From positions 512,001 through 576,000 of the forward strand of contig CAXXGI010000002.1 of assembly GCA_963674695.2 (NCBI GenBank): 64,000 nt of DNA, read 5' to 3'. The translations under genes were made by a program, and so were the position numbers. The notes beneath the pieces are model-generated. The model had not been told where the DNA came from and did not search any database. It saw nothing but the letters and a program-made list of their open reading frames with translations. The stretch is from a bacterium (GTDB lineage: Bacteria; UBA10199; 2-02-FULL-44-16; JAAZCA01). Below, one piece after another: positions 2,851-53,167 of this stretch; the first letter of the stretch is position 1; the number at the start of each line of letters is the position of its first letter.

Positions 2851-2856
2851 GCCCCC

Positions 2857-5778: not shown

Positions 5779-5825
5779 CTTATATAGAGGTTGAACAACG
5801 ATGAATACCTCCGTTGGGGGGCTTT

Positions 5826-14740: not shown

Positions 14741-17700
14741 GTGTTCATGCAGCTTAGCGAGCATTTCAGGAAATCGCGAGCCATTCGCATCATCGTCAGT
14801 ATTCTGACAATGGCGATGGTGAACCTGCCAATTCCGCGTCAAATCTGGGCCTCCCAGGCTACCCCACGCACGCCGCTGTATGCCCAGCACCTCAATATGC
14901 CCGGAACCTTCTCCACCCAGACGACGATCGAGAAGACGGCCGAGCCACAGACGATCGATGGCCTCTCAACGGTTGATACGGACATCAAGAAGCTCGGCCC
15001 GATTTCCACCGTGCGCGAGATCGACGCGACGCTCGTTCCCACCAAGACCGACGATCGGTATGCATTGGTTCCGATCGTCAAAGAGATCTCCAAGGGGCTC
15101 TTCGAGGCCGACAGCGATCAGTGTTCAGTCGTCATCGGAAAGAAGATCGAATTACTGGAGTGCAAGGGTTTCATCGTTGTCGATGGCAGCGAGGGCAAGG
15201 GCGAGGTCAAGCTCGCCGATCCGGATCATCTGCGAAAGATGCAGGAGGAGCTCGGCGAGCAGCTCGTGCTGCGCATCGATTTCACCGACCCCGAGACGGG
15301 CGCCGATCTTGTCGTCAGTGCGCGCGTGGAGACGGCGGCCGAGGAGCTGAGCGAAGAGTTGACCGATGGGCTCGGTGACGGCGAAGGTGAGGGCGAAGGC
15401 GAGGGGAGTGGAACACTTACGCAAGAGATCATCGACGGCGCGCCGCCGTCGGAAGAGCCTGCGGCGACGGGAGAGCCGACCGAGGGCACTGAGGCAGTGA
15501 CGGATGCGATTTCCGAGGGTGTGGGGGAGACGACGCCGGAGCAGACTGCGGAAAACACAGATACGGAAGCGCCCGACGATGCCGACGTCCCCGTCGAACC
15601 TGCCGAGACCGCGACGACCGAGAGCGGCGCGGAATCAGCCGAGACCGCACCGACATCGACCGAGCGCCCCGAGGGCGAGACGTCGACCGCCGATGCCGCA
15701 TCGGAATCAACACGCGAAGACACGCAGGCACCCCCTCCCGCCGAGAGCACTGCGGCACCGATCGCGCAGGCCGCGTCCGTTCCGCAAACGGAATCAGCGT
15801 TCGATCGTGTCAGCCGCGCGTTTGGCGAGTTCTTCGGCACGACTCCGTCATCGCCCACACCTGCGCTGACACCGACTGCGCCCATCGGTTCTACGAGCGG
15901 GACGTCCGCTTCGTCTGCCCTGCCATCGGCATCGACGGCATCTTCGATGCAGGCGGATGTCGGTCCGGCAGCATCACAGGCCGAAGTGCAGGCCGCACCG
16001 GAGCCAGAAGGGGGCACGCCGGTCTCTCCGCTGCCCGAAAACGTGGATGTCTCAGGGGGCACGGGTGCCACGTTCGGAACGCAGATCGATCCGGTTCGTG
16101 ACGTTCCCGATCTGTCCGCTTGTTCCTGCGTCGTCGGCGCACCCGACTCCGACAACGACGGCGTCTGCGATTCCTGCGACAACTGTGTCACCGTCCCTAA
16201 CGGCGATTGCATGAAGGATGCCGCGCGCTGTGACATCACCGGCGATGGCAAGGCCAACTCCTACGAGCGCACCGTCGGCAACCAGATGGACCGCGACAAC
16301 GACAAAGTCGGTGATGCGTGTGATAGCGATATCGACGGCGACGGCCTGCCCAACGATATTTTGGTTTTGCCCCAGAATCTCATCGGCGGGGCAAATTTTA
16401 AGGCGCGTATTGTTCGCAATAACGAGATCAAGGTTGTGGCCTATGATCCCATCAACAACGACGATCACGCAGACGAAGGTTTTGATTCCTATTTCCGCGT
16501 CAGCGCGTCGGCCCTGGGTCTCGATGAGTTTCTTTCCTGCTCACGAGGGGTGATTGCATGGGGAAGGAATGATCTCCCTGACAGCAATATTCCCGACTAC
16601 GTGGATATCATCGATACGAGTCTCGACGACTCCTTCAATCCGAACGATTCCCTTCCTGCGGGCAACTGGAAATCGACGCACAGCGGTTGGCGCGAATGGT
16701 ATTACAAATCGAATGCTTGCAGGGACAACAACCCCTTCGTTCCAAACGCTCTGGATGAGAGCGTTCCGGTCTATGAGAAGGCGGGCGATAATTCCACCGA
16801 TCGCCTCTCGCACTGGAAGAGCGCTTCGTTGCCGCAGTTCTATTATGTGAAGACGGGCGATGCATGCCCCGAAGGCGATGCGCGTTCATGTAGGGGAGGG
16901 GGAGATGCGGGCAGCAAATGTATCCGTGGCAACTGTTACAATGTCTGGCGCATACCCGACACCGAATTTGCGGTCTATTCCAAGCAGAATGTCCCTCGCG
17001 AGATCGTCGATGTGCCGGTGGAGGAGGATGTCGAGTTTAAAGATTTTGTGAGCGATATTTATTATGCTCGGTACGAAAATATGCAGCGGTCGTATTTTTC
17101 GAGCGTGGAATCATGCATTGAAGCGAAGGTGGAGGATCTCGTTCCCTGCTCATCCGATTTCAATTGGAGCGTTCCCGGATGCAGCAACTTTGACTGTCTG
17201 GGTGAGAAATTCTCTGCAGTCGATATAGGCGTTACGACTTCAGCGGAACTGGCGGATCGCTCTTTAGATTGTAGTTCCTATCCCAGCATGCTGAGGGTCT
17301 GTGCATGTGGTGCACGCCAATCTTTTTGGTATAACTGTGTAGGTGCCGTTTCGCATAATATCTATAGCGGGCAATCGAGCTTTGGTCCAGATGACGCGTG
17401 TCTCGATAGCAGGTTGCTGTACTGGCTTTGGGATTTCCAGAGCAGAAACAGTAGCTTTGAACCGAGTACATGCGGTGAGGGCGGTCTTGAAAGTAGGTTG
17501 AGGACGGAACTCAATACAAAGCGCGCTTTGATTCGTGAGAAATGGAACGAATGTGAGGCGGCTTGCACTCCAGATGGTGAATGGGCCAAAACGTGTGAAG
17601 ATGCATGGTGCCAAGATCAACGCGCGAAACTGAAATCAGATCCGTCAATACGCGAGGAGTGCGAGGAGGAGCTGCGAGAGAATAGGCTGTTTGCCCTTCG

Positions 17701-20700
17701 TGAGTGGACCGCCCAAGCCCTTCGAACGCCGTTCAGCATCAGTCCCTATATGGCGTGGGCTGGATGGGATCGCCTTGGATATTACTGGGTCCCCTTCGAC
17801 TGGGATCTCGACGGCGTCTGGGAGGTCGATGTCGATGTCAACGGCGACGGGAACGTCGATGCGGAAGACGAGGTTGTGTGGCAGAGGCGAGAAGTCGATT
17901 TCAAATTAGTCGTAGGCAGCAATCACTATATCGATATCTGTCTCGGTATGAAGGAGAATCCTCCGGACTCGCCATATTCTCTCCAAAAGTGGTGTCCCGA
18001 CATCTACGAGATCGAGAGGTTGAAATCCTCCGGCGCCATATCCTGTTCGATCGACAAACTCGGTGCCTCGGATCCGTTTGATCGGGGTTGTTGTAACGAT
18101 CTCAAGTCCTACATGGATGAGAACCGCGATCATCGCATCCTGCGCTGGATCTATATTCGCTACTGTGCAGGTATGCCGCGCCTGGAAGAGGGTAATACAT
18201 GCGCCTCTTTGCCCGCCACCATCGGCTGTGCCGCTGGCAAGTATGTTCGTCCTCTCCCCCCTGAGGAGATCAATGAGGGTGAGCCGATTCGGCCGCTGCT
18301 CTCCGACTATCTGCGCAATATCGAAAATGCATTCGATTTTCAGAATCCGAAGAACGATATCTACGTCGGCCCCGACCCGGATGGCGACGACATCCAGAAC
18401 GCATCCGATGTGAGCGCTCCCAGGTGTCGCAATAGTGTGAGCCAGAGTAGCTCGGGCGTGTGGCCGCTGGCCGCCCGGTATTGTTCGACGAACTGCAACA
18501 GAGAGAATATCGCCGAGAAGGGTCCCGTCTTCGATGGACGCGGCAGCGATGACATCTCTTATGACGCCATGCTGCCCGCGGATCGCCGTCACAACTTCTG
18601 CACCGAGTTCTGTCCGATTCCGCCCAGCGGGGAGAGTTACGACGCTTGGGCGCGCGAGCAACAAGGCTCTCTGCTGAGGGCGGGCGGCCTCTGCGAGGAT
18701 CACAGCGATTGCGGTGATGGGGCACGGTGCGTCGGGGAAGAGGGAAACAAAACCTGCAAAAATATCTTCAAGGAGACGGACCTCGTCGACATGGAGTGCA
18801 GCCGTATGCCGCGCGAGGGCTGGCCGTATCGTAGGTGTGCCCTCCAGAGTAATGGCGGGATCATCCTCGAGGATATGAATGATGGAGTATGCTCGTCGGG
18901 CCGTACGCAGGTCGATTGCTATCCTTTAGAACTCGACTCGACTCTCTGCGGTGAGAGGGTGACGGTGAAAAACTTGAGCACACCTTTCGGGATGCAGCTC
19001 ATCCATTGCTACGACCCGAATCGTCTGCCGGCTGACTGCATCGTCCCCGACCTCACGGCCGACTTCTGCCGTCGCAACTTCGAACGGACGATGGATCTCA
19101 CATACGCCCAGAAGTTCGGTTGTTTCGATAACTGTCCCGATCACTACAATCCTGACCAGAGGGATGCCGACGGTAACGGCATAGGCGATGCGTGCGACTC
19201 GACGCAGGGTGGAGTGGTTGCTAGCCAGACATGTTCAGAGAGCTTCCCGCCGTACTGGGTCGATCTCGACGGGGATGGCTTCGGCGATATCTGTGATAAC
19301 TGCCCCGCGCGCAAACAGGACGGCCAGGCCGATGCCGATGCCGACGGCATCGGCGATGCGTGCGACAACTGTGATGACGAACGCAACCCGCTCCAGAAAG
19401 ACCGCGATTGCAACATGGTGGGCGATGCGTGCGACCAGTATTGTTCCGGACCGGACGATACCTGCATGGGCGATCGGGATCTGCTCCGCGGAACAGATTT
19501 CATCCGCGGCTATTGCAAGGATTCGAAGCATCTCTACTGCGTCGAGAGTGCCTGCCGCCGCTGCGCGCCGCACCAGGTCTTGGCGGGCAGTGTCTGTATC
19601 GATCGCAACGCTTGCAATGGCGATGACGCAACGATCGAGTGCGGTGATTTCGGTGATGAAAAGATGCTCTGGGACGGCCGTGCCTGCACGCCGAAGGCGG
19701 GGTTTGCCTCCGAGATCAATGCCATCATGACCGACCGCGGCCTGCAGTGTCGCTGCCCCGATGCCGATGAAGTCTTCACGCCAGGTGAAGATGGCCAGCC
19801 TGGTTCATGCGGCACGGCTTGTACCCTCGCCGCTGCCGATTGCACGACGCGCGAGTGGAGCTGGCAGAACGATGTTCCCTACACCACCTTCTCTGCGTGC
19901 AAGGTTCCCGGCTTCGATGAAGATGCCTGTGCGTGTGCCATGAAAGACGCCGATAACGGCACGCCGTGCGGAGAGCGCGGATGGTGTGTCGGCGGGTCTT
20001 GCACCAATAATCCTGAAGACTGTGACGAGTGTGATGAGCCAGGCGGTTGTGTTGCTAACGGCCTCGTGCGCTGCTCCGATGGTTCCTGTGTGACTTCATC
20101 CGATCAGTGCGCCTGCGGCAGCGATGCCAACTGCGCGGCGAACGAGGAATGCAAAAACGGTCTCTGCCAAACGCGGCCGTGTGTAATCGATGCAAATTGT
20201 CTGCTGGGACAAATTTGTCAGGAGGAGACGAACGAACGCGGGGTCCAGGTCTCGGAGTGTCAGTATCGCACCTGCAGTGAAGGGGAACCATGTCCCGAGG
20301 GTTCCACCTGCGAGAGCGGGCAGTGCCTTCCGCAGGAGTGCCGTCGCTCCAGCGATTGTCCGACGGGGCTCATCTGCAGCGATCGTATCTGTACCAGCCC
20401 CAGCACGACCTGTACCATCGATGCCGACTGCTTCGACAACAATGAATGTACCGCCGACACCTGCAGCGATGCGGGCGTTTGCCCCTACGACGCCGTCACT
20501 GCTGGTACGTCCTGTGAAGGCGACGCGCTCTGTTCAGAAGACCTGCTGAGCCGCCTGGTCTATGTGTGTCAGGACAAGACCTGTCGCAGCACGCCGAACC
20601 CTTGCGACGGGCAGCAGCTCTGCGCACCGGCCACCGGCGCGTGTTCGAATGCGTGCGACCTCAATGCGGTCGAGGGCGAAGAGTGTGCCGCCGATGAGCG

Positions 20701-23700
20701 CTGCATCGTCGAGTCTGTCGAAGCGGCCGATGGCAGTCGGACCCAGCAGAGCCTCTGCGTCAAGGTGATCGATCAGCCCGAGGAGATGGCCGGGTTCGAC
20801 CTCGACTTCAGCATGATCGGCGCGCAGGGAACGAACGCCGTCTATTTTGATCCCGAGGATAAACGCTATAGCGAATCATTCGTCGGCGTCTCCGGCGGCG
20901 AGCACGAAGCGAGCGCGACGATCCTGGCCACGGGACTCTATGGCGATGGTCCGATTGCGCAGTTGGTGCCGGCCGATGCGCCGCTCGAACAGCTTGTCTC
21001 CGGGTGGGGATTGTTCAGGAATGATTCCCACCTCTTCCTCAGCCGAAGCGTCGTCGCCACTCCCGGCGAAGAGCTGATGGCCTATGCCTGGTTGCGCGAC
21101 GATCGCGGTGCGGGGCTTTCCCTTCCGAACGTCGGTTTTGTTGTTCCCGGAAGCGACGGCGTTGTCTCCGCGCAACAGGTGGTCTTCGATGAGAAGCCGA
21201 TCGCCGGCCTCTACCGCGCCCGCGTTTCGATTGCGGCGTCGGGTTCAATCTGTGCCTCCGTCGCTGGAGCTGAGAGCGATCTGTGTACGACGATCACCGT
21301 CGGTGGAGAACTCCCCGAAGCCGAAGTTGTAGGGACTTCCTTCGCGCGCATCGGTGCCTTTGATCGGTTAACGCTCATCTGGCCCGACTGGCAACAGGCG
21401 CCGCCAGAGGCCAAACTCACCGTCTATCGGATCGTTCGCTGCGCCCTGCCCGAGGGCGGCGCGATGCCATCAAATGATATTGAGATCGATACGGATGCTT
21501 CGCTCGGCGAGAATAGCATTACGTTTCAGGGCCTCGGCGATCCTCAAGGGAGCGATGGAATATTCACCTTCACGCCGCCGGTCGAACAAAATTGTTCCTT
21601 TGGTCCGACCTACGGTGATGTCACGTTGCCTGGTTTCACCGATATACAGACCGTCGATTTTACGATCGCCATCGCACGCCTCTGCAAGGATCAGCACGTC
21701 ATTGTCGATGAGCGCGGTGAGCAGATCAATTCCCTCATGATCCGCCCGGTGCATCACGACCAGGATATCCTGGATCTGACTCCCTTCTGCAGTGCAGATG
21801 AGAATCAGGATGGGGAGGAGGAGGGATGGACGGGACGCAGATACTGCCGGTATGAAGGACAGACCTGCGACGATGTTGAGGCCTTGCGTCGCTATCGGTG
21901 TTCGACTCCCGAAGACATGATCGACATCCGCTATCAGATGCGGCGCCTGCGCATCATGATCTACGGTTCTGCGGGTGAACCCTACGATGTGACCGATCAG
22001 GTCACCTGTACAGCCGCGGATGACGCCATCGTGCGCTTCGATCCGCGCTGGCCCTGCATGGCGCTGGTGCGCTATCGCGATGGAGAGTCCGAGTCGGCGC
22101 GGGCCGATCTCATGATCAACTTCGGCGGCGATGAGGTGACGAAGAGCGATTTCTTCACGGTCAACAATCCGAATGATATGGACGGCATCTACGTCGATCG
22201 CCTCGACATCCGCATCGGCGCGTCAGTTGCGCTTGAAGAGGATCCGGAACCGCTTCGAGCCTATACACCGATCGATGCGGTGGCATCGGTCACCAACTTC
22301 ACCGAGACGATCCACCCTGATGGCGTTCCGGTGAAACTCTGGGTCGTGCCCGACGCGGAGCGTTCGCCGGACGTTGCCGAATGGGAGGTCACCCCGCTCA
22401 TCGAGCTGGGCGTCGTCGATGTAGAGGCGGGGCGTAGCTATCAGGACGAGATTGCTCTCCTGCAGAGCCAGGAGCTCAATATCTTCCGGTACGAGAACGA
22501 TCCGCAGCGCGGTCCGGTGATCAAGGTGAGCCCGATCGGCGACATGCTCTACACCGGCGGTGCGGTCGCGCGCGAATTCAAGACGGTGCAGGCCCCCTAC
22601 AACTTCAAGTGGGGCACGGGGATCATCAGCGCCAACCTCGGCACCGGAAAACTCATCGCCTTCGAGGCCCCCGAGTGGGAGGAGGGCGAGACCGACTTCG
22701 GTACGGAGCAGATGCTCGGCGCGTCGAGAAAGGTGCATCTCTTCTACAGGCCGGCCGAAGGTGCGGAGGATGATGAGACGCAGGTCTATCTGGAATTTAT
22801 CAGTCCGAAGGCCTCCAGCGCGCGCCTCTTTGGAAAACTCAAACTCACGAACCTGCCACCCGCCGACTGGACGATCACGCCTTCGCGCGTGCTCCCCTGG
22901 GCGATGATCACTGCCGGTGAGCACATCGGCTCGCTTATCACCGAGGGAACACTCGAAGCGCTCGGGCAGACCGACTTTGATCTCGAAATGCTCCTTGCAG
23001 GTGATGAAGCGGCGGCGCGTGCAGCCATCTTGCAAGCGTTTCCGGATAAAACGAATGAGGAACGCGAAGCGATTCAACGTGACCTCAAGGCCTATGGCCA
23101 GGCCATGATCGATGCCCTCGACGCCATGCGCATCTTGGAGGAGCAGGGTGTCGACGGCGATGACTCCAGCCCGATCTTCAATATATCGCTCAAAAGCTGG
23201 CTTGTAGAGCCTGTGATGTCTGAGGTGGATGGGGTCGAAGTTGTTGAGACCCCCGGCGTTCCTCTCAATCGCGATACGTTCTCGCGCCTCTTTCCCGAAT
23301 CGAACGGACATTGTGCCCCCTACTTCATGCCCTTCCTGCGCGACATTCTCCTGGTCATGGCGCCGCTCTTCGGCACGCCGCTCGATGCACGCATCGCCGA
23401 GCGTCTGAGTCGTTTTGAGATCTGCGTCAATCCGGTCAACGAGGATGATCAATGTAACGTCGAGGATGGCTGCGCAGGCGATGCCGAGTGCGTCGAGGTG
23501 GAAGACGGCGAAGGATATTGTGTCGAGGTCTGCCCAGCCGAAACGTTCTGGAACGGCTGGGAGTGCGAGTCGGGCGAGCCGACTTCATGTACGGAGGATG
23601 AGGCGTGCATCGCCGTCGGTCTGGAATACTGTGAAGGCGGCATCTGCCGCGAATGTCCTCCGGGGCAGTATCGTCAGAATGGGATGTGCGTCACCTGCGA

Positions 23701-26700
23701 GGGAGTTACCCCGCAGCCGCCTGAGTGCACCGACGATCGCATGTGTACGCTCGATGCCGAGTGCAGCGATGATGACATCTGTACGAACGACACCTGCGGT
23801 CAGTCCTATCCGGGCTACTGCGACGGTTCGGTTCAGATTCCTCGTTGTGGAAATGACTGCGACGATGAACACCCATGCGGCAATGGCCTCGTCTGCACCG
23901 GCGGCCAGTGCATTCCCACCGATATCCCCTGCGACGCCAGCGCTGACTGCGACGATGGGAATGCCTGCACCACCGATGTCTGTGCTGAAGATGGCACCTG
24001 CGCCTATACCGAGACCACCTGTCCGGAGGGTGAGAGCTGCAACCGGGTCACCGGCCAATGTGCAGTGAGTTGCCCTGTGGGTGAGATCTATCACGAGGCC
24101 GATCATACGTGCAGTCACCTCGTCGATGGCGCGCTCGTCGAATTTTCAGCGACGGCCGGCACGGGTCAGTGGAGCGGCCAGACGACATCAGTCGGCGTTG
24201 GCGCCTATGAAGGCCCGATCGTCGGCATGACCATTCCGGCTGCGCTTACCATTCCCGGCAAGAGCGTCTCCGCTCTCTCCGGCGGCGTGATCGGCAGCGC
24301 GGCGGTGACGATTCCAAACGTGCCCGCAAACATCCGCCTCCTGCTCTCTCGTGAAGAGGTCTTTGAAGAGGATCGCAGTCTCGGTCGCGATGCCGCGCGG
24401 CGCCTGAAGGCCTATGCCTTCGTGACCGACGCAAACGGCCAGCCGGTCGAGGGCTTGACCGACGTTGTTTTTACAAAGAACGGGACGCCGCTTCAAAAGA
24501 CGCAGGGTCAGGATCAGCGCCAGGGCCTCTACTATCAGCTCATCGATGGGATCGATGGGGCGAGCTCCATCGCGGTGAGCGCGGGATCCGTTGCGGCAGC
24601 GCCGCAGGAGGTTGCGTTCGTTTCGGATCCGGATGTTGTGTCGCTTCCGAACGATTGGGATGTGTTGCTCGACCTTCCGCGCCGCACGCTCTATCGGGGC
24701 CAGGAGTTTACGATCCCTGTGCGCGTGAATACCGGTGATCAGTTTGGTGTCATGGCGTTCAACTTCCCCGTCGCCTTCGATGCTGATGCCTTTGAATTCG
24801 TTCGCGTTGAAAAGGGGAGCGGCGGCGCATACCTCATGGACCTGCAGCAGCCGACTGCGCAGGGGGGACAGGTTGTCGTCAACGGGGCCAAGGATCCGCA
24901 AAAGGTTGCGACGCTGGGCGATGATGTGGAACTCATTCGTCTCGTCTTCCGCGTGCAGGATGATGAAGCGACGGTGGTCGCATCCCCACGCCTCTTCACC
25001 GCTACGGCGAATCAGCTCTATTCGATGCAGGTCATCCCGGGCCAGGGCAATCCCAACCATGGAAATGGAAAGGTGATGCAGGTCCTGGATCGCACGGGGA
25101 TTTCGAATGCTGGCGTGGTCGTCGTGGAGCCCGAGGCGTATCTGGGCTTGGCGGCTTATATCGAGGACAACGATTGGGTCGACTATCGGCAGGTCAACCA
25201 GGCACGCGTACCTCCAGCGAGCGTGGTATGGATTAAGGGTGTCAGTACGCGCACGCAGGCGCCGACGGATCTGGTGGCCAACGGCGTTGTTTCGATTGCG
25301 AGTCTCACGGGCGAACCGGAAAACGCGGGCCTCGCCTTTGCGCCGGAAGGTGCCGGCCTGGGTATCAGCCTGGCACCGAATGTCCACAGCTCTCAATCGT
25401 TTGCCGTTCGTCATGGTACATCCGAGATCGAAGTACCCATCAGTGTCACCGCGATTTCGTCGTCCGATCTCCAATTCGAACCGGCATCGAGGAGCATCAC
25501 CCTTGGTCGTCTAGCTGAGGGAATCTATGAGCCGATTCAGATTCGGGCAAAGGCGGAAAAGAATGGAACGACATATGACGTCACCGATGTGATCTCCTGT
25601 CAGGCCACAGGCCCCGCGACGGTTCACGATGGGTGCATCATCGAACCGTCGGCCATCGGTCCGATCTCCCTTGTCCTTGCAGAAGATCAATCATTTGCCC
25701 TCACGGTGGCCGATAGCCCGGTGACGATCGAAGGTGATCTCAATGTCGCGATCGTCGGCTCTCTGGATGTGCAAAAGGTAAACGGCACGGCGGTTGGCGA
25801 TGAACCCATCGAGGTCGCAGGGGGCGTTGCGCGCGTGACGGCAGAAGCGACGAATATCTTCGGCGCGAAGGTTGCCTCTCCCGTTCGCGTGACGGCCAAT
25901 TTCTCGTCCGGTCGCACGGTGGATGTGACGCCGATCGTGGCCGGTTCGCTCGAGCTTCGCGGTCAGGGTGAAGCGGTGCCTTCACTCGCTCCGGTTTCGG
26001 GCGAGCCCGGAATGTTCGAAGTGGTGGCACCAGGGATCAGTTTTATCGATGCCCGCTTCGGGGACGCGATGGGCACGGGCGTGGCGGTGGTCGACCTGGG
26101 TGAGGCGAGCTTCGAGGTGACTCCGATGGCGGCAGCGAGTCACGGGTGCAGTCCCGCTGATGCCGAGGATCGCTCCTGCAAGCTTACTCCTGCAGATGAC
26201 TGGGCACGGCCCATTCGCGACTATGGCGCGACCATCGATTTTACAGCGCAACTTACGTATGAAGCGGATCCGGAGCATCCCTTCGATGTGACGCAGGGCG
26301 CTGCATTCGAGGTCGAGGCGATCGATGGGAATCACATCGTCGTTGAGGCGGTCGCTGGCGTGAATGGTCGCTTTGCGGTCAGCGCCGGTGCCGCGCATGG
26401 CGCGAGTCTTGTCACAGCGAGCTATGCGGGGATGACCTCCTCGTGGATCGTTTTGGTGACGGGGATCGACGAGTTCCGCATCGATCTCTTCGAGGACTTC
26501 GATCCGCTCACGACCGACGATCCGCGTTTCGTTGCATTTACGGGCGATCCCGTCGCGGACGCCGACTTTCAGTTGATCCAGGATATCGATTACCAACGCG
26601 GTCGCGCCAAGGTGATGGGGCGCTGGACCGATGGGTCGTGGATGAATCTGACGCGCGAACCGGGCGCGGTGAATCTGGTTTCACTCACCAGTGAAGTCGT

Positions 26701-38700: not shown

Positions 38701-41700
38701 CTTCACGATCGAGGGTTGGTATCCGCCGACGATCGCGCGCGAAGCGGTTGCCGATGATGAGCTCACCTTCATCGAGAGCGTCCCCTTCTACCAGCGCGGG
38801 CGCGCACGCGTGGCCGGCATCTGGAGCGACGGCACGCGCACCGACTTCATCAGCAATTATCAGGCCGCGCGCGATCTGCTCACGGTCACCTCGTCGGATG
38901 AGGTCACAGCCGCCATCGCGCCTGATGAAAACTTCTACCGCGTCACCCCGGCCGACGAACCTGTCAGCGGCAGCATCGATATCGAGGCCGATCTGACTGA
39001 CGGCATCCTCGAAGGTTACTTCGATCCGGAGCCAAAAGAGATCTTCATCACGCCGACGGCAGTCGATGTCGAGGACGTGGTGCTCACCACCGAAGGGGCG
39101 CCGAGTGCACGCAATGCGGATGATAACGCCCCGATCGACGGCTTCGAGGGAACGGTCTCAGCGGCAAAGGGCGATCGAGTCGTGCGCCGCGCGGTCATCC
39201 GCATGGCCGACGGCACGCGGTTTGTGTCGACGAACGAGGATGGCACGCAGATCGTCGCCAAGGGGAATGTCCGCTTGCTCGGGTTTGGCCCGGCCATCGA
39301 GAACTTCTTCCCGGTCGATCCGAACGAGGATGAGAACTATCGCGACCTGCTCATGAGCCTGCTCGGTGCACAGAACTTCGCGCAGATCGTGAACGGCACG
39401 CAGGCTTCCGCAAAGATCGCCTCTCCCGCAGAGAGTGCGCTCAATGTGAACGCCAACGGTGCGATCGATCTGCCGGTGACGATCGCCGCCAACGCGGGCG
39501 CGCCGCTTGCCGAAGATGCCGTGGGCCACACGCTCGCCATCAACCTCCTGCCGAACGTGGGCGATGTCGATCTGGGCGCCAAGAAGGGCCTCGCCTTCCC
39601 GGTCGTCCAAGCGGGCGAAGAGCTTGCTGCAGATGTGCGCATCAACGTGAGCGGTTCGCAGGGACTGAGCTTCTTCAACGTCTGGATCGCCTACGATCCG
39701 AACGTGCTCGTCTGCACGTCGGTTGCCAATGCCATGCCGGGGGCGCTCAACCTCGCCGACACCTGCAACGCGCCGCAGCCGACGGCCGATGGACGCGTGA
39801 TGCTCAACCTGAACGGTCCGATTACATCCGGCACGCTCCCGACCGGTAGCGACGTGCACGTCGCGACGGTCACGTTCACGGCCCAGGCCGACAAGGGTGT
39901 GGGCCTCGTCGACGGCTTCACGCTCGAGATGATTGAGCGCAGCGACACGACGATCGGCGATGCGATTGTTCCGAATGGCAAGCGCGCCTTCGTCGCCGGA
40001 AAGGCGCTGGCCGATCCGACGCGCCTGGGCGATGTCAACGAAGACGGGGTGTTCTCCGGCTCCGATGTGACCGGCATCTACCTCTATCACTTAAACCCAC
40101 AGCAGAATCCGCTCGGAAACGTCGAGGCGAGTGACGTCGAGGTGGACGGTACCTTTATCACCAACGACGCCTTCCGCGCGCAGCAGGTCTTCGGGCGCGT
40201 CTTCGGCTTCGTCTCGGCAGGCGGCGAGCAGGTCACCCCCGATCGCGCCAATCTCCTCTTTCGCATCCTCGGCGAGACCTACGAACCGCTCAACGATGAG
40301 CAGATGCGCCTGCTCGTGCGCGTCCCCTTCGAGGCCGATGCCTATCGCGTGGCCGGCGGCATGTGCGATGACGATGCCAACCCCTGCCCGATCGACTTCA
40401 CCTGTGCCGAGGCAAGCCCGCGCACCTGCGAGGCGGCAGGCCAGGGGGGCTTTTTCATCGCTACGCATCGCGCCGATGGAAGCTTCGTCCTGCCGCTGGA
40501 AAAGGCGGAGGGGGCGGCGGCATTTGAAAACGTCGTGATCCCCGAGATCAACGCGACCTTCCTCTATCTCGCGGGAGGGGCGCGCGCCAACACGGTGCCG
40601 ATGACCTTCATGAACGTCATGCTCCTGGGACAGGGGTGTGACAACGACGACCAGTGCCAGGATGATCAGATCTGCAACGCCTTCGGCACCTGCGAAGATC
40701 CCGGCGAGTGCTCCTCGGATGCGATGTGCGCGCTCGACGAAACGTGCAACGATGAGCGCATCTGCGTCCCGCGCTGCGCGGCGAACGAATACTGGGATGG
40801 AACGCAGTGTCAAACCGGCGGCGGCTGTGACGACACGCACCCCTGTGACGATGATCTCATCTGCGATATCGCCACAGGCGAGTGTCGGCCGCAGTGTTCT
40901 GTCGATGCCGACTGCGAACCTTACGGCGCCGATCTCCTCTGTGTGAACGGCATCTGCGAAGATCCGATTTCCTGCACCGACGACTGCTCGATTCTCGACG
41001 ACGCCTGCAACGACGGCGCCTGCGTCGGCAACATCTGTGAACGCGCCCCCGCGCGCGACGGCGAGGCGTGCGATGATAACGACCCCGCGACGATCGATGA
41101 TCTCTGCGCCGCCGGCGTCTGTGCCGGAACGCCGCAGAGTTGTGGTCCGCAGAACCCCTGCCCGACGGGACTCATCTGCAACGACAGCGGCGTCTGCGAA
41201 GAGCCGATCAATGCGTGCAATGAGGGACAGAGCTGTGATGACAACGACGTCTGCACCGGTCCGGATGTGTGTAATGATAGTACATCCCTCTGTGAACGCC
41301 CGCCGCTGACGGGCAACGCCTGTTCGCTCGCCGATGGAACCGGCGGCATCTGCTCAAACGGCGTCTGCATCGGCGGCGGCGACTGTGCGTCGAACGAGGA
41401 GTGCATTGCGGCCAATCCGTTGCTGCCGTTCTGCGAGGAGGAGCACTGCGTCTCCTGCCCGGAAGGAGAGATCTGGGATCCGTATGCCGCGAACGCTGCG
41501 GGCGCATGCGTGGCGGAGGAAAATTGTGCGGCGAGCGGTCGCATTGCGCGCGAAGGCGACGGCTTCTGCGTCTGCCCGGACGATAAACCGGTATGGGATG
41601 GCGCACAGTGCTCTGGTGGGAACCCCGAGGACTATCTGAGCCCCGTCGAGGGCGTGCGCATTGATTTTGGCGCGACCGCGAATCGCGGCCTTTGGAACGA

Positions 41701-44700
41701 GGCCTCGACCTGGAACAGCGCGGATGAAGACTACAGCGGCGAGGTCCTCGCCGTGAGTGCGCCCGGCGGCGAGGCGGTCGACTTTACCGCGACGCTCATG
41801 CGGATGAACGGCACGCCGTTTGCGCAGGCGATCCAGGCGAGCGAGGATTTCGATCCCGCGACGCCATATGCGATCAAGCTCTTCCTGACGCGCGAGGCGA
41901 TCTTCGAGGATGCGCGCATCCGGGATGCCAATAAGTCGCACAGCGTTTCGGCCTTTGCCTTCGTCACCGACGCGCGAGGGCGTCCGGTGAACGCAGATGC
42001 CGGCGTGCAGTTTCGGATTGGAAGCGACACTTGGTCTCCAGGGGTCAACGGCAAGTACAGCGGTGTCGATGGCCTCTATGCGACGACGCTCGAGGTGAAC
42101 GCGACGGAGAACACGATGATCTCCGCGCGCTTTTGGGACGTGGGATTTCCGGAAGCGTCGAAGGATGTCGCCTATCAGGCCGATCCCGACGTGACGGATC
42201 TTGCGACCGTCGGCGACATGGTCCTCGAACTGCCGCGTCGACCCATCTTCCCGGGGCAGGATTTCTGGACGACGATCGTGGCCAACACGAATGTGACTGA
42301 TTCCCAGGATCAGTTGATCCATGCGATTAAGGTGAAGGTCATCTATGACGCCGCATCCTATGAATACCGCGCGGTTGATCGCGCCAATAACGGGAAACAG
42401 TTCGGCACGGTGAATGCGGGCGTGAATGATCTGGATGCTGGACGCAAGGAGATCACGCTCTTTGCGACCTTTGATTCGAACTCCGGCTCTGCAGCGCCGA
42501 TGCTCGCCGATCGCGCGGAGCTGCTCGATTTGAACTTCAAGTTCATCGGTGGCAATCCGGGCACGATCGAGGTGAAGCCCGTCGAGCTCCTCTATAAAAA
42601 GGATGGCACGTTCAAGAATATCGTTGATCTCAATGCGAATCCCGCAACTTCAATCTATCCGGCATCTGGACTTAACGTCGCGACCGACGATGTGGTCGGC
42701 TTCGCCGCCGCGATCGCTGACACCGACTGGGTCGATCGCTCCGGCATCGGGGGAACTGCCGATCCGCGCACGATCGACGCGCATCTCATTCGCGCGTATA
42801 CCTTTGTGGATGAAGCCCTGACCGTTCAGGTTCAAGCACCGGCGCCGTTTGTCGCTGATGGGAAAAGTGTGTCGCTTTCGGATGCGGCGCCGGCATTCAG
42901 CAAGGGAACGATCACCGTCTCCTCGAGCGACCTCGGAAATGTCTCCTATCCGATTGAGCTCTCCGCCGATCGGATCTTCCGCGCATCCTGCGCGCTCACC
43001 TTCGAGGGGTTCAATCCCCCGTTCGTGTTGGGGAGGGTGACGCAGACGAGTTTCCAGCGTGCTCAGGGGCGTGTGCTGTGTAAGGACGGCGATCGCGTCG
43101 TCTACGACCTCACGCATGAAGTGCAGTGCCAAAAGGTCTCCGGTGATGCCAATGTCCACAACGAGCTGCTCGCAAGCCGTTGCCTCGTTGCGCCGACCTC
43201 TCTCGGTGAGCTGAGGATCCAAGCGGTCCGCGATGAAGCGCCCGTTGGCGAAGTGATCGAATTCAAAGTGAGCAGCGATCAGGTTGCGGTCGATGAACTC
43301 CTCATCGGTGTTGCCGGCTCGGTCACCGCGCCGAAAAAGCCTGACGAGATAAAGCTCGCTGTTTCGGGGATCCAGGGTGCGGATACCGCGCGCGCGGTTT
43401 CGGCCTCTGCCTTCAACCGCTTCACCGCGATGGAGAACGGGCCGATCGTGGTACTCGCGCGTTATGCGGGCGGCACGACCGCCGACACGACCGCCGATGT
43501 GACCGATCTGGTCCTCGATTCCCTGAGCTTCATGGGTGGGGCCGTGGCGCCGGTGGAAGAGGGTGGTGCGCGCAAGCCTGAGGTGCGCGTCCTCGAGCCG
43601 GGCATCACGACGATCACCGGGAGTTATGCGGGCAAAGAGGGCAAGGGACATGCGATCGTCGCCTTCCCGGGTGAGCCGAAAGTTCACGTCGCGCCGACGG
43701 GAACGGTCCTGCTTTCTCCTTCAAACGATGATTGGGCGAAAAAGCTGGGCAACATCCCGACCGAGCAGGCTATGGTCGTCGATGTCTTCTATGGTGATGA
43801 TCACGCGAACGCCGATGCCATCTATGCAAAGGCGGCGGTGGCGACCTATACGAACGGCACACCCGAGGCGGAGCGCGTCGTCGAGGTGGTCGGCGGCGTC
43901 GTGCGCCCGATTGCGGGGCGTGGCATGGGTTCGGATGAGATCTGTATCACCGTGCCAGGATTTGATTTTGCTCCCACCTGCGTGAAATTTACCGTCACCG
44001 GCATCGATGGCCTCGAGGTCAAGACCTACGAGGACTTCGACCCGAAGGATACCTATCCCGAGGGGTTCAAGCCCGCTGCGGGCGACAAGCCCCAGGTCGA
44101 GCAGAATGCCTTCGGTTTCGTCGAGGGGATCGACGTCTATCAGCAGGGCCGCCTGCGCGTGCAGGGCCACTGGTATCACAATGACACCTGGATCTGGCTC
44201 ACTGACATCACGAACTTCTCCAAGCTCGACTCTTCGCTCCTGCTCGAGACCACGGTGGGCGGAACGATGCGCACCGATGTCGTGGGGATCGCTCCAGCGC
44301 CGGCCACAGGTCGCGATTACTTCGGACTGACACCGCTGATGCCGGCTGAGGCGCGCATCGTCGCGCGCCCCGCAGCCGGGGCGAGCACGGCGGGCATCGC
44401 GGGGGTGCGCATCATCACTATCGCGGATGATCCGGTCGATATCGATCTCCTCGAGATCCTATCGACGAGCTTCTCAACTGCAGGCGCGGGAGTGAGTCGC
44501 AAGAGCGTTTCCGATACGCTCATCGGCGGTGGCGCGACGGCGTTTGCCGGGACGATCGGCGGCGAGCGCGCAAGCTCCCGTTCGCTCACCGTCGGTGGAA
44601 GATTTGCAAACGGCGGCGCGCGCGCAACCCTCGTGGCAAACGGCGTGCAGCAGGTCAGCGATGAGGGCGCTCCTCTGGTGACGATGGGGATGAACGCGAC

Positions 44701-47700
44701 GGGCTATGAGAATCGCAACGCCGCAACGTCAGTCGGTGAGAACGGCACGATCGTCGCCGGCATCCACGACAACGGTGCGGTGATGGTGACGCTAGATCTG
44801 AATCGTGACACGGCGAGCGCATTTGCCGCGACCGCACGCCCCTATGCCATCAACCTCACGCCGAAGGTCGGCGATGTCGATGTGGGCGAGATCACGGGCC
44901 GATTCGTCCCGGTGCTCACGGGTTCCCATGAGGTCGAGCTGCGCATCAACGCGGGGAATCTGCACCTGAATAACTACGAGATCACCGTGACCTATGATCG
45001 TCGCGTCATCGATGTGGCGGGCGGCGCGGGCAACTATGCCATCACCAATCTTCTGGCGAATGATTCGAATATCACCGGACAGGAATTCAACGCCAAGGTC
45101 GAGGTTGCCGATGCCCCGCCGGATGACACCACCGGGCGCATCAATCTCTTCTGGACGGTGACAGCGGGTACGAGCCCCACGGGCGTGATTCCGGTGGCGA
45201 AGATCACCTTCGCTCCTGCGACATCGAAGAGCAGTGGCGATTCGATCACGAACCTCTCCGGTATCATCTTCGCCATCAGCGGTAAGGCCGATATGGGTGG
45301 CACGAGCACGCCCATCGGCGGGACAAACGAGCGCACCTTCGATGCGGGCACGGGGCTCGTCGATCCGCCGACCGGAAACGTGAACGAGGATGAAGCCGGT
45401 GTTTTCAACGGCTTCGACACGGCCAGGATGCGCGAATATATGGTCGAAACGATCGGTGCGGATGATCTTGATCTTTCCGAGGCCGACTTCGACTACAGCC
45501 ACGAGGTGCGGGGCGCTGACGCGACGGTGGAAGCCGGCGATATCGCCGGGTCGGATGTCGTCCAGGCCGAGCAGCTCCTCGTGGGCAACTACTACTTCAT
45601 CGAACCGGTCATCGCGCAGGTGAATGGTTTGAGCGCGAAGCTCTCGGTCGTCTTCCGCGACAAGAAGCGCGAGCCGGTCACTGCCTCCATCCGTCCGGAA
45701 ATCGCGGTTGCAGCGCCAGCCGGTGCGGCGCTCTTCCAGGATGAATCGCTCTTGCAGCCGCTGGTTGCTGGTGAAGCGGGATATGAAATACTCGTGAAGC
45801 CGACCACTGGCCGCGATGCCTTCACCGCCTGGATGCAGCTCCCGGCGGGTTCGACGGAGACGACCTTTACCGTCCGCCTCTTCGTTCTCGACCAGAACAA
45901 TGCGAGCATTGTTCTCAACGACAGCACCGCGACCTTCATGCGCGCGCTGGCGCCGAGCTGTCAGAGCGGTGCCGATTGCGAAGAGGGCTTAAGCTGCGTC
46001 GACGGCGCCTGCATCGACGACTGTCTCGATGACGGCGATTGCGACGGGCTGCTCTGCGATACCGACACCGGCGTCTGCATCGATCCGAACGAGTGCACGA
46101 CCGACGAGGACTGCCCGGATACGGAATACAACGATCGCTACTGCGATCAGCAGACGAACCAGTGTGCGGCCTGTCTCGGCGGGTACCATTGGGATGGAAA
46201 TTCCTGCGAAGCGGGCGAAGAATGTGATGATGAGAATCCCTGCGATGAGGGCTTCATCTGTGCCGACGGCGAGTGTCGTCCGCAGTGCAACTTCTCCATC
46301 GATTGCCCCGATCTCAACCAGATCTGCGTCGACGGCGCCTGCATCGTGCCCGAGTGCGACGAGGGGTATGCCTGGGACGGCATGAGCTGCATCTGCGTCG
46401 CCGATTCCTGTGGCGGCAACGAGTGTCTCCCGCCGCGTCTGCTCGACGCGATGAGCGTCTGCGCCTGCCCGGGCGAGATGCTCTATGACCCGAGCGACGC
46501 CACCTGTATCGATGCGGATGAATGCCTCGAACCGCGCGCGGCCGATCCTGCCAGCGGCATCTGCACCTGTGCGGATGGGCTGCTCTGGACGGGAACCGAA
46601 TGCGTCGACGAGGATGAGGTCGAGTGCGGAATGGGTGCCCATTACGATGACGTCGCACGCGCCTGTGCCTGCGATTCCGGTCAGCAGGAGATGGACGAGA
46701 TCGGCGACTGCGTCGATCGCTGCGACGACGACGACTTCTGGGATGCCGTCGCGCAGGCCTGCGTCGAATGGGAATGCGCCGAGCCGTTGCGCAACTGGTG
46801 GGATCCGCCTGCGTGTTGTGCACAGTACACCGCCTACAATCCGGAGTATGACGCTGAGACGATGCCGGTTGAAGATCAGTGCACGGGTGAAGGCGAAGGG
46901 TGCGAGAATGATACAGATCGCCAGATTCCAAATACGGATCTCTGCTGCGCGTTGGATGCCATCTACGATGATGTCGTCGGCAGCTGTATGGATCGCTGTG
47001 ACGAGGGGCATGTCTGGAACGTCGATACCCAGAGCTGCGATCGCCTGAGCTGCAGCACCGAGGATCGCTGCCCGAGCGGCGGCACCTGCACGATCGAGAC
47101 GAGCCTGTGCGAAGGGGATGGAATCGAACCCTACGACTGCCTGCCCGACATGAGCTGCCCCGAGGGGTATCTCTGTGAAAACGGCGAGTGCCGTGGCGGC
47201 GGCGACGATCCGTGCGTGACCGACGAGGACTGCGCTGATGCCTTCACCTGTGTCGCCGGCGTCTGCAGCGAGTGCGATGCCAACGGCCAGTGTCCGAATG
47301 TGGCCTGCACATTGGCGACCGATTGCCCGGCGGGATTCGAGGCCGCGGTGCTTTCCTGTTCTGAGAGTGTCTGCAGCAACTGCGACACCCAAGGTGTCTG
47401 CATGCCGCAGCCGTTTGTCTGCGAGGCCAACCGCTGCGTTCCGACCGGCGGTGACAACGGCGATGAATGCGATACCGATGATGACTGCATCGAGCCGGGG
47501 CTCGTCTGCCGCGATGGTGTCTGCAGGCGTGACAATTTTGAATGCATCGATAACTGCGAATACGTCCCGGGCGCGAAGGTGGAGTTCGGCACGAATCCAG
47601 AGGATGCAACCGTCTGGACGCAGGATACGAAGGACGTTTGGCTTGCAAGCGGCGTTGATGCCGATCGCGGCAAATACACCAGCCACATCACGGCGCTCAC

Positions 47701-50700
47701 GCATCCGCTCAAAGTCGATGCCAAGGCGCAGGTGCGCGGGCGCAAGAGCGAGAGCCTCTATGACATCCTGACCGATCCGCTCGCGATCCTGACGGATTTT
47801 GCAGCGGAGCAGCCGAACGTGCGCCTCATCCTCAACCGGCGTGCGGTCTTTGAAGAGGTCGATTCGACCGCGGGGGCGAAGGGTCGGCGCATCAAGGCCT
47901 ATGCCTTCGTGCGCGATGCGCAGAATCGTCCGGCCGGTCCCGACCTGATGGACGTGAAGTTCCTCCTCGTCGATGGCGTGACGAACCTGGAGGTCGACGC
48001 TGCTGCTGTGAGCGGAATGCGCGGCCTCTACGGCGCGACGATAACGGCCCCACCGGGCGTCTTCGTCGCAGGCGAAGAGCATGAAGCCCAGGTGCAGGTG
48101 AAGGTGAACGGTGCTCCGATCTTAGCGAATGAGACCGATCCGTTGGCGGTTCCGATTGTGGTCCATCCCGATCCGGCGCGCGCGCAGCTGCTGGCGAACG
48201 TCGGCGACGTGCTCGTCGACCTGCCGCGGCGCGAGATCGTGGGCAGCGAGAGCTTTATCCTGCCGATCCTGGTCAACTCCGGAACGCAGGACCTGATGGG
48301 GATCGAGTTTACCCTCAGCTATGATCAGGCGCGTTTCGAGTTCCTCTCCGGCGGGCGTGGCGCCGGTGTCCCTGCAGGGGCATCGATCATCACGGATCCC
48401 GCAAATCCGGGGCAGGCAGACGGCAGCGTGCGGGTGAGCATCTTCGTTCCCGAGAGTGCCGGACGACGTGCCGGTGCAGCGCTTGAGGTCTTCCGGATGG
48501 CGTTTCGTCCGCGGGGCATCACCGGCCAGGGCGGCGATTTCCGTGCGAGCGTCACCGCGCTGCGCACGACCGGCGATTATCCGATCGGCCCCGACCGGGC
48601 GCGTGATGCGCAGGTCTTCTCGCGCGCAGGTCTCGGCGTTCAAGGGGATGTCGATGTGGTGGTGCGTGCGATCCAGGGGTTTGCGGCCTCTGCCGTGATG
48701 GATGATCTCAATGACTTCACCGCCATCGGCGGCCCTGCGGCGGCAACGCTGGTGCGCATGCCGATCGTATATAATGATGAGGCTGCGCCGATCGATGCAG
48801 CGGCAACCGCCAGCGCGGTGCTAACCCCACTGGGTTCCATGCAGACGATCGCCGCCGAGGGGCGCGTGCAGCTGCGTCCTGGGGCGATGCCGACGCCGAG
48901 CGATGGCGTGCGCGTCTCGTTCTCGGGTGCGGCCGGTTGCGCCGGCGGCACGAATGCTTGCAGCGCCATCACGATTCCGTTCACGGTTGCAAAACTCGCG
49001 ACCGATGCTCCGGAGACCTTCTTCGTCGAGCCGCGGGCACAGACCGTGACGCTCTCCGCCATCAGCGGGACGACGGCCTTCCGTCCGCTTTCCCTCCGGG
49101 CCGTCTGGAACCGCCCGATGGGCGACGCGGATTCGGTGCCGTTCGATGTGACGCACATGCTCACCTGCTCGAGCGATTCGGGCCAGATGATCCCCCCGAT
49201 CGCCTCGATGCCCTGTTACTTCACGGCGCAGTCGACGGGAAACTTCGAGGTGACGATTCGCGGCGGCGATTTCGCCAAGACGTTCAACGTCGAGGTCATT
49301 GCATCGGCCGATCCGGTCAGCGAGATCTTCGTCGCCGTCCCCGGCATCTTCAACCCACAGCCTGAAGGGTTGGTGGGTGCAGTGAATGAACAGGGCGTGG
49401 CGCCGGCCGAGGCCCTGCTCACCAACCGCCTCAAGAAGATCGGTTCGCGCGCACCGGTTGCGGTCTGGGCGCACATCAAGGAGGAGTGGAGCTTGGTGAC
49501 GCCGCTCGTCGCGGCGGATAGTCTGACGGTCACGCAGGGCGACGGTTCGGTCCTCACCCTCGATCCGCAAACCGGCGAGGTGATCGTCCAGGGTCCGGGG
49601 CAGGCGATCGTCACGGCGAGCTTTGGCGAGATGGCTGATGGCAGCCCCGCCCGAGGAACCGGAACGGTCGATGTCCTCTTCGACGGCGTGGGCGAGGTGA
49701 GCGTCGGCGTGCCGACGATGCTGGCGCGCTCGCAAGGTGATCTGGCACAACGCGTCCTTGGTCTCCCGACCTCAAACACGATGCAGGTCGATGTGAACTG
49801 GGGGGCGAACGGGAGCCTACGCAATGTCCAGGGGCAGGAATGGGTGACGTTTGAAAACCTCGACGGCGCATCCGAGCAGGTGATCACGGTCAATGTCGAC
49901 GGGAAATACAGCGTGCGCGAGGATTTTCCGACGGGGCTCAATCTTCAGGATCCGAACGACTGGTGCGATGACATCCAGGTCACGCTCACCGGTCGCGGCG
50001 AGATGGACGGGGCTGCGGGTGAGAACGCCCAGGTCATCACCGACGGAAACGGCGACAACATCGGCGTGACGATCACCGAGCGCGTCTGCGTGGTGACCCT
50101 CGAGTCGCTCGGTGTCGCTACGAACGAGGACTTCGCCGCACGAAGCGACGATCCGCAGGCGTATCAGGGAACAGTTGCCGACAGTCTCTTCACGCCGATC
50201 TTCACGGCGAGCGATGGATCGATCTTCTATCAGCGCGCTCGTGTGGTCGTGACGGCGAACTGGACGGGTGGGCAGGATGCCGTGCGGCTCACGCCCACAA
50301 ATGCGGTCGTCAATGCGGTGCTCGGCGTGGATTCCGGTTTGGGATCGGTCGATGTCGGCGACGCCATCTATCGATTTGTGCCGAGTGGGACGACGGGGAT
50401 CGGAAACGTCCGAGCCAATGTACCCAAACAGGTTGCGCCCGACTTTGACGACCTCATCTATATCGATGCGATCTTCGGCGAACACCCGATCGAGGTGAAG
50501 GCCGATCCTGCGGGCGATGGAACGATGGCGCAGGTCGAGATCCTCGGCTGGCGCGTCGAGCGCACGCAGGGCTATACGCCCGCGCGGACGTCAGCGGGGG
50601 TGGATAGCAGCAACGTGCCGATCGCGTTTGCCGGGACGATCGGTGCCGGCGGTGCGGTGGCAAAGGATGCCGTTCGCCTGCGCCTGGTCGGAACGATGGC

Positions 50701-53167: not shown

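Follow-up and report, generated by a model that had tools for sequence, protein, structure and literature searches.

The 64,000-nucleotide stretch analyzed here, hereafter the window, covers positions 512,001 to 576,000 of contig CAXXGI010000002.1 (assembly GCA_963674695.2), from a bacterium of the GTDB lineage UBA10199. It contains one giant gene, whose product is a secreted-looking chain of five large modules, each predicted to carry two cohesins and a dockerin, that alternate with Cys-rich linkers (Table 1). The genes panC, panB, and dNK (deoxynucleoside kinase) lie upstream of the giant gene, and downstream are PEBP/YbhB, rsmA, tsaD, and genes for a YfiO/TPR protein and an OmpA-family protein. 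The giant gene by itself makes up 1.27% of a 3.03-Mb genome (G000) that is assembled in 3 contigs and scored as 100% complete.

An earlier reading of the window, made from the sequence alone, had proposed one intact 38.4-kb open reading frame (ORF) with a product of ∼1.3 MDa, and the translation agrees with it. The frame is single and intact over 12,808 codons, the only stop codon is the terminal one, and an ATG stands at codon 3. The product has a mass of 1,352.9 kDa, a pI of 4.16, and 556 Cys residues (4.3%). The sequence-only reading had also named a mis-assembly joining paralogues as the outcome that would undo it. Such an event is very unlikely because the gene has no nucleotide repeat at which a false join could occur (a self-blastn of the ORF shows only one similarity of 148 bp, with 76% identity, and one of 43 bp, with 88%), because modules 2-5 are only 24-27% identical to module 1 at the protein level, and because sequencing data match the assembly. 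In run X1, 100% of sampled words from 24131-34130 are present, and a public contig of this run (40,953 bases) covers window positions 33300-53299 with 0 differences. Runs X2, from the same sample as X1, and X3, from a different sample of this study, cover the interval in near-identical pieces. We note that X1 is possibly the source of the assembly itself, so that only X3 is partly independent, and that the read-based support spans 24131-53299. The X3 contigs contain two skip joints (41833>44996 and 43447>44429, side 30) and a C>T change at 36589, which are probably strain or assembly noise. Taken together, the gene is real and maintained. Consensus scans for a promoter and a terminator at both gene ends gave nothing above the shuffled expectation.

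Modules, linkers, and termini

The layout in Table 1 was derived from the Cys density profile, self-BLAST, and a hidden Markov model (HMM) of the module, and it bears out the order sketched earlier: a stalk, two TSP3 blocks around a variable insert, and then Cys-rich linkers in alternation with modules of ∼1,450 residues. The five modules are 1,354-1,523 residues long, and the linkers between them are 339-754 residues long with about 14% Cys (12-14.5%). The N-terminus, for which a Sec-type signal had been claimed, is indeed Sec-like by inspection, with a basic stretch (RKSR), a hydrophobic segment at aa 14-32 (Kyte-Doolittle 1.75), and then IWA/SQ. Hydropathy exceeds 1.6 at only two places, namely here and in a single Ala/Val-rich segment of module 3, and there is no internal membrane anchor.

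Table 1. Features of the giant gene and of its product, with predicted domains, in window coordinates
Feature	Position	Strand	Description	Basis
Whole ORF	14741..53167	+	12,808 aa plus stop; GTG start; alternative ATG at 14747	ORF list, translation
N-terminal region	14741..15340	+	Sec-type signal (aa 1-∼38); small region to aa 200	Inspection, orthologue comparison
Stalk	15341..16120	+	aa 201-460; acidic, Cys-free, low complexity, 20% D+E	
TSP3 block 1	16121..16399	+	aa 461-553; calcium-binding repeats	Pfam PF02412, 33.9 bits (cut-off 25)
Orphan insert	16400..19120	+	aa 554-1460; 5.1% Cys; candidate variable head	
TSP3 block 2	19121..19510	+	aa 1461-1590	Pfam 17.4 bits (below cut-off); 37% identity to block 1
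Linker L0	19511..20740	+	aa 1591-2000; Cys-rich, 13.7% Cys	
Unique region	20741..23407	+	aa 2001-2889; Cys-poor	Weak module-HMM match aa 2374-2569; weak Ig-like leads
Linker L1	23408..24130	+	aa 2890-3130; Cys-rich; modeled as string of short beta-hairpin modules	
Module 1	24131..28192	+	aa 3131-4484; cohesin A 24692-25000; cohesin B + dockerin 27122-27907	
Linker L2	28193..30454	+	Cys-rich; 754 aa, 108 Cys	
Module 2	30455..34861	+	aa 5239-6707; cohesin B + dockerin 33617-34573	
Linker L3	34862..36121	+	Cys-rich	
Module 3	36122..40636	+	aa 7128-8632; cohesin A 36809-37099; cohesin B + dockerin 39425-40219; dockerin 40025-40162	
Linker L4	40637..41653	+	Cys-rich	
Module 4	41654..45934	+	aa 8972-10398; cohesin B + degenerate dockerin 44747-45610	
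Linker L5	45935..47572	+	Cys-rich	
Module 5	47573..52141	+	aa 10945-12467; cohesin A near 48248-48394; cohesin B + dockerin 50885-51775	
Region L6	52142..53050	+	aa 12468-12770; C-terminal, Cys-rich	
C-terminal tail	53051..53164	+	aa 12771-12808; ends in poly-Gly-CSC motif (GGGGGCSCQMCHE)	

The identity of the modules emerges from profile and structure comparisons. At E ≤ 0.01, Pfam matched Cohesin and TSP_3 only in the whole protein, with Cohesin (PF00963) scoring 30.4, 33.5, and 30.1 bits on three overlapping protein pieces (cut-off 24.1), and NCBIfam returned one far-sub-threshold match and nothing else. The same two libraries gave no nonribosomal peptide or polyketide synthase (NRPS/PKS), RTX (HemolysinCabind), RHS/YD, hemagglutinin, or autotransporter/two-partner secretion (TPS) domains, and no lytic, glycosidase, or peptidase domain. 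Pfam at this threshold also gave no carbohydrate-binding module (CBM), S-layer homology (SLH), or sortase signal, and the C-terminus has no sorting signal with a transmembrane (TM) helix. The earlier claim of a non-enzymatic giant therefore stands within the reach of Pfam, NCBIfam, and PDB sequence comparison, but the sequence-only reading had overlooked the cohesins and dockerins.

A profile of the module-end region (A3, a 15-row alignment spanning cohesin B and the dockerin) matches the ScaB cohesin 3l8q at positions 63-158 (E 1.2e-5) and more than 20 solved dockerins, including 1ohz_B and 2ccl_B, at positions 201-259 (E 6.6e-7 to 1e-3). In modules 2, 3, and 5, Pfam Dockerin_1 matches this position below its threshold. 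The dockerins of these modules keep acidic EF-hand-like loops in the alignment, and in the genome search that of module 3 reached 23.1 bits (cut-off 22.9). An AlphaFold2 (AF2) model of module 1 (aa 3291-4490), built from a 17-row alignment of paralogous and orthologous modules and with a mean pLDDT of 72.8, is a chain of beta-sandwiches, all-beta save three helices at model residues 1044-1089. Foldseek comparison of this model with the PDB returned multi-immunoglobulin (Ig) arrays only: NUP210, HYDIN, contactin, DSCAM, the S-layer proteins SbsB, SbsC, Sap, and EA1, alpha-2-macroglobulins, and GhpA. By these comparisons, each module consists of a cohesin A near its start, an Ig-like array of about ten beta-sandwiches, and a cohesin B fused to a dockerin near its end, which gives the protein ten cohesins and five dockerins, at 2:1 in every module. 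Outside the giant ORF, the genome, scored as 100% complete, has no match to Pfam Cohesin, Pfam Dockerin_1, or the family cohesin-dockerin profile.

Three eukaryote-like proteins (P0007, P0008, and P0009) match the cohesin B region alone (query residues 1002-1194; E 7e-5 to 4e-4), and the domains that accompany the match are VWA plus Thr-rich, ankyrin plus TNFR, and cadherin plus TMEM132, respectively. There are hints here that cohesin B may belong to the TMEM132-type cohesin lineage.

The linkers are built from small disulfide-rich units in tandem, whose Cys columns are invariant in the alignment. The AF2 model of linker L1 has a pLDDT of 72.1 and found no PDB match with Foldseek at E ≤ 0.001; its weak rows (E 0.04-1) are LDLR/EGF, furin-like, and TNFR Cys-rich arrays. 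The Pfam families hit in the linkers, all below cut-off, are Dicty_CTDC, DUF7107, ADAMTS_CR_2, and Adt-1. From these leads, the six to seven linker regions would be disulfide-rich spacers of EGF/furin-like repeats. We also observed two adjacent RCC1-repeat genes about 7-10 kb upstream of the giant gene of relative G071 (L015:10745-13295), one of which carries a Dicty_CTDC Cys-rich repeat at 45.9 bits, above the Pfam cut-off, the repeat type hinted at in the linkers of the giant.

Two regions of the giant stand outside this repeating plan. The orphan insert between the TSP3 blocks is unique to the giant's species: aa 554-1460 have no relative within the family or in any library searched, the ESM Atlas had no usable match for aa 551-1460, and a word-indexed search against proteins of 500-1,593 aa, a method that gives weak evidence, found none. 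For aa 2001-2890, the ESM Atlas gave only sub-0.9 Ig-like leads (Invasin, Big, and NUP210), and this segment is probably a degenerate Ig-like half-module. A PDB sequence search with both regions returned 0 matches at E ≤ 1.

The family carries a terminal motif, a glycine run followed by C-[S/G/N]-C, hereafter Gly-CxC. It is at the extreme C-terminus in the giant and in P0001, and a few residues past the signal peptide in G037, G071, G035, G070, G058, and P0003; the N-terminus of P0004 is without it. In all four proteins with both ends known (the giant, P0001, G071, and G035), the motif occurs exactly once. Our guess is that Gly-CxC serves in anchoring or end-linking via its thiols. Two other roles were considered and rejected. 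A lipobox does not fit, given that the motif lies 11-19 residues past the hydrophobic core in the N-terminal forms, is C-terminal in the giant, and is followed by no membrane helix. A genome-wide sorting tag does not fit either: GGGCxC has 3 six-frame matches in the genome, one of them the giant, and no other plausible ORF carries it. The final CQMCH of the giant (aa 12803-12807, window 53150-53164) resembles a heme-binding CXXCH, which we rejected as a family feature because P0001 has CSVCT there; in the giant it is probably due to chance.

Family, locus, and export candidates

An exhaustive HMMER search with 1,200 aa of module 1 against 1.84 billion representative proteins gave 9 matches at E ≤ 0.001, 4 of them at E ≤ 1e-10. 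The matches include P0001 (6,467 aa, 38% identical), P0003 (7,894 aa), P0004 (4,481 aa), and P0002, which is partial and for which the NCBI name is merely "cohesin domain-containing protein"; the remainder are one small fragment, one generic multi-cohesin protein, and the three eukaryote-like proteins described above. Within the phylum, represented in the searched collection by 93 species genomes of one class, the module profile detected the family in 8 of the 92 other species (E ≤ 1e-10), including open frames of 12,096, 9,627, and 9,037 aa, and a single-protein query detected it in 4 of 92. Most of these genomes are fragmented, and absence is therefore weak evidence; genomes of the phylum range only from about 1.1 to 4.6 Mb. 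By the module HMM, the giant has 5 full copies, and 10 relatives' proteins have 1-6 per protein or fragment. Word-indexed searches, likewise weak evidence, found no homologue for module 1 among proteins of 2,381-5,000 aa or, when it was placed within a 10,000-aa reference, among proteins of 5,500-17,500 aa. In a locus search of genome contigs, alignment A1 offered no conserved stretch, and with module 1 alone 0 of 48 pattern matches were confirmed. The family is rare and lineage-restricted.

The history of the modules can be followed in a FastTree phylogeny of 35 modules, in which the modules of the subfamily form one clade (support 99). Across species, module 1 pairs with module 1 of P0001, module 2 with module 1 of G012, module 3 with a module of G008, module 4 with module 2 of P0001 plus a G008 module, and module 5 with module 3 of P0001, a pair that the tree marks as a long-branch join. 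Since the pairing follows orthology and does not run within the protein, the duplications are ancient and predate these genera, and each module has been retained on its own. P0001 is complete yet has only three modules, and it shares both the signal-peptide core and the C-terminal motif with the giant. Modules are 33-38% identical between species whose dNK proteins are 70-72% identical.

The signal's h-region in the giant reads MAMVNLPIP, and the G008 and P0001 orthologues keep it (MAMVNLP[IV]P). The wider pattern [LM][AL]M[VA]NLP[IV]P is kept among orthologues that are otherwise about 35% identical (window 14747-14881; L012:8742-8876; P0001), a conservation that exceeds the need of a generic Sec signal. 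Among 241 million metagenome records, the pattern occurred in 95 stretches, 1 of which encoded a relative (the P0001 contig).

The locus, too, is conserved. Orthologues share the panC-panB-dNK locus in three relatives: in G008 and G012, of the same taxonomic family, the giant gene starts divergently beside dNK, as in the window, and on the P0001 metagenome contig panC-panB-dNK is followed by the giant gene, with a dNK 70% identical to the window's. No homologue was found in G001 and G009, both 99% complete, and there dNK and rsmA are immediate neighbors, separated by 710 bp and 110 bp, respectively. No gene is conserved as a neighbor in the more distant members G037 and G071. The sequence-only reading had described housekeeping neighbors (dNK and ybhB/rsmA) without an adjoining transporter, and this description extends beyond the window, in that no dedicated transporter or secretion genes lie beside the giant gene here or at the loci of four relatives.

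Export and disulfide handling, which the same reading had left unexplained, now have ordinary candidates, although the lack of a dedicated neighboring system stands. The inventory that it had called for found one complete type II secretion system (T2SS) at G000:C3:61-74 kb, comprising gspD (with N0 domain), E, F, G, pseudopilins, and L/M, along with a PilMNOPQ type IV pilus (T4P) and Tad systems. A VKOR-Thioredoxin_4 (DsbA-like) fusion is encoded by a 432-aa frame at G000:C2:626904-628070, about 51 kb past the window's end, and a second DsbA-like protein lies at C2:305066. No DsbB was found in the genome, and the fusion is likely its disulfide-forming enzyme. We infer that Sec, the VKOR-DsbA fusion, and the T2SS act on the giant; since the T2SS is unlinked to the giant gene, the export route is purely inferential.

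Elsewhere in the window, we observed a tmRNA gene at 8177-8519 (-) with 150.7 bits and a cobalamin riboswitch at 2658-2852 (-) with 79 bits, the latter directly upstream of the gene for a TonB-dependent receptor, 515-2833 (-). Near the giant gene, positions 3864-5348 (-) encode a secreted-looking protein of 494 aa with three HYDIN/ASH/DUF1573-type Ig-like domains, a further surface protein made of beta-sandwiches. Two ORFs overlap on opposite strands, at 5736-7727 (-), 663 aa, and 5814-8030 (+), 738 aa, and neither has a Pfam match at 1e-5.

A candidate surface fiber and its relation to known systems

With moderate confidence, we read the giant as a non-enzymatic extracellular structural or adhesive fiber of a diderm bacterium, one that self-associates and is stiffened by Ca2+ and disulfides. 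The chain would cross the inner membrane via Sec, its ∼550 Cys residues would be oxidized in the periplasm by the VKOR-DsbA fusion or the DsbA-like protein, and it would reach the surface through the genome's single complete T2SS. Outside the cell, it may form an extended thread, stiffened by Ca2+ and disulfides, of a few hundred nanometers by rough arithmetic from domain counts, itself a soft point of the reading. Since no other protein of the genome has a cohesin or dockerin, the five dockerins would most likely bind the ten cohesins of the same protein species. This plugging, predicted in cis or between copies, would bundle or net the threads into a surface fiber or mesh. Ligand binding would most likely fall to the unique insert between the TSP3 blocks, acting as a head, and anchoring or end-linking to the terminal CxC handle. 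A bolder form of the proposal, which we consider distinctly unlikely, makes the giant a bacterial counterpart of mucin/von Willebrand-type polymers, in which cohesin-dockerin pairs zip copies sideways and poly-Gly-CxC forms redox-controlled end or anchor disulfides, building a lineage-specific sheath or matrix. CxC peptides are known mimics of disulfide isomerase, and on this proposal the shift of the handle within the family, from just behind the signal peptide to the very C-terminus, would mean that it works at any free end.

Several observations weigh against the fiber proposal. The Ca2+ loops are degenerate in the dockerins of modules 1 and 4 (2 of 5), the Pfam support for dockerins is at or below cut-off, and cohesin B is divergent, with Pfam Cohesin at E ≤ 0.1 in no more than 6 of 15 aligned segments. 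The T2SS lies on a different contig, about a megabase from the giant gene, and the two are linked in none of the genomes read. None of the sequencing runs listed as containing the sequence is an RNA run, and the orphan insert of ∼900 aa could hide an enzyme unrecognized by any library.

The main rival, which fits most of the evidence and which we nevertheless hold to be somewhat unlikely, is a cell-to-cell attachment organelle of the sort proposed for Omnitrophota giant ORFs. Such a fiber would grasp another cell in the service of an epibiotic, predatory, or syntrophic way of life, with the cohesin-dockerin pairs serving only to fold or stiffen the chain. The small genomes of the phylum, the patchy family, the fast evolution of the modules relative to dNK, and the species-unique insert agree with such an organelle, as do the T4P and Tad pili and the published giant TSP3/dockerin ORFs that are read as adhesins. 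However, neither a lytic nor a glycosidase or peptidase domain was found in the giant, no partner organism is known, and nothing indicates host dependence in a 3.03-Mb genome that is scored as 100% complete and has panB and panC in the window.

A quite improbable reading retains the giant inside the envelope, where the VKOR-DsbA fusion would oxidize it and it would form a periplasmic scaffold, a very large spacer or sheath that separates the two membranes. It would account for a Sec signal that comes with no recognizable outer-membrane targeting signal, autotransporter barrel, type I secretion system (T1SS) signal, or sorting tag, and for the lack of secretion genes beside the giant in the five genomes read. 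TSP3, cohesin, dockerin, and EGF-like Cys-rich repeats, however, are typical of extracellular proteins, a thread so large would be hard to house in the periplasm, and a complete T2SS is available.

Very improbable, in our view, is a scaffoldin of the cellulosome-like type, in which the ten cohesins would serve to bring other proteins or enzymes with dockerin tags to the surface. The ratio of cohesins to dockerins and a layout like that of adaptor scaffoldins such as ScaB, which the profile matched, speak for recruitment, but neither Pfam nor the family profile found anything in the genome to recruit, and the CBM, SLH, and sortase signals of such a system are missing. That the giant is an assembly artefact or a dead, unexpressed relic is hardly credible: its modular architecture and the missing RNA run would allow it, but the sequencing data contradict it for 24131-53299, a frame of 12,808 codons at 60% G+C cannot persist unselected, and other species have intact frames of 9,037-12,096 aa and a complete 6,467-aa orthologue.

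The giant fiber candidate is a clean and complete megadalton bacterial surface protein in a near-closed genome, with defined module boundaries, orthologues, and a fixed locus. Few giant genes are defined so well, since assemblies usually break within them. A plug-and-socket pair of the cellulosome is used five times in a non-enzymatic chain that has no genomic partner, which allows a direct test, with small recombinant domains, of the idea that cohesin-dockerin pairs serve cell surfaces generally as a means of self-assembly, and the Gly-rich CxC at either end across the family offers a concrete handle for anchoring or polymerization. The family may explain the cell covering of a barely known phylum.

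Like the scaffoldins of Clostridia (CipA/ScaA and ScaB; PDB 3l8q, 1ohz, and 2ccl), the giant combines cohesins and a duplicated F-hand dockerin on one polypeptide, and its assembly, like theirs, would depend on Ca2+. It differs from them in having no dockerin-bearing enzymes, CBM, or SLH/sortase anchor, in its diderm host, and in the long Ig-like arrays that surround its cohesins. Peer et al. reportedly reviewed non-cellulosomal cohesin and dockerin modules in 2009. The giant RTX adhesins of T1SS (LapA, SiiE, and MpIBP) are megadalton-scale, Ca2+-stiffened strings of Ig-like domains on the Gram-negative surface, and the giant resembles them in scale and in its string of Ig-like domains. Unlike these adhesins, it has no RTX repeats, C-terminal T1SS signal, or adjacent ABC/MFP/TolC genes, and instead has an N-terminal Sec signal and hundreds of Cys residues.

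The closest published parallel is found among proteins of at least 10,000 aa, which occur in many phyla and include "Dockerin-type giant proteins" of Omnitrophota with TSP3 repeats (West-Roberts et al., bioRxiv 10.1101/2023.11.21.568195). A second paper reads giant ORFs of Omnitrophota that bear dockerins as adhesins (Seymour et al., PMC10066038). The Omnitrophota giants and ours are alike in being very large and secreted-looking, in uncultured small-genome hosts, in TSP3 with non-cellulosomal dockerins, in having no internal TM helices, and in the attachment reading. The Omnitrophota giants are at least 30,000 aa and highly repetitive, with discoidin and dockerin/CBM35-like repeats and a conserved T2SS-like locus upstream. 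The giant of the window, in contrast, has 12,808 aa, non-repetitive DNA, 1,400-aa supermodules, spacers of 14% Cys, and five dockerins plus TSP3; it has no F5_F8_type_C match, dNK, panB, and panC lie upstream of it, and its T2SS is on another contig. No relationship to the published Omnitrophota giants appeared among the 9 matches in 1.84 billion representatives, none of which is so named, and the two are set apart here by their descriptions.

Eukaryotic TMEM132-type adhesion molecules reportedly combine a cohesin with Ig domains (PMC6030884), and the giant likewise has a cohesin-like domain within an Ig-like run of a putative extracellular adhesion protein, a similarity that is weak and local. 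TMEM132 proteins are single-pass membrane proteins and, unlike the giant, have no dockerin, Cys-rich spacers, or TSP3.

Literature searches found no description of the giant's family, although the supplements of both giant-gene papers may list relatives. The sequence-only reading had announced a new class of matrix, sheath, or adhesin fiber; the protein is giant and secreted-looking as it said, but the novelty was overstated, since giant TSP3/dockerin proteins are already in print. Judged by its domains, the giant would be of a known kind, a non-cellulosomal cohesin-dockerin giant surface protein, and not a wholly new protein class. What is new is the 1,400-aa supermodule of two cohesins and one dockerin, present five times in one chain in alternation with Cys-rich spacers, together with the terminal Gly-CxC handle, the conserved housekeeping locus without partner genes, and the restriction to a small uncultured phylum.

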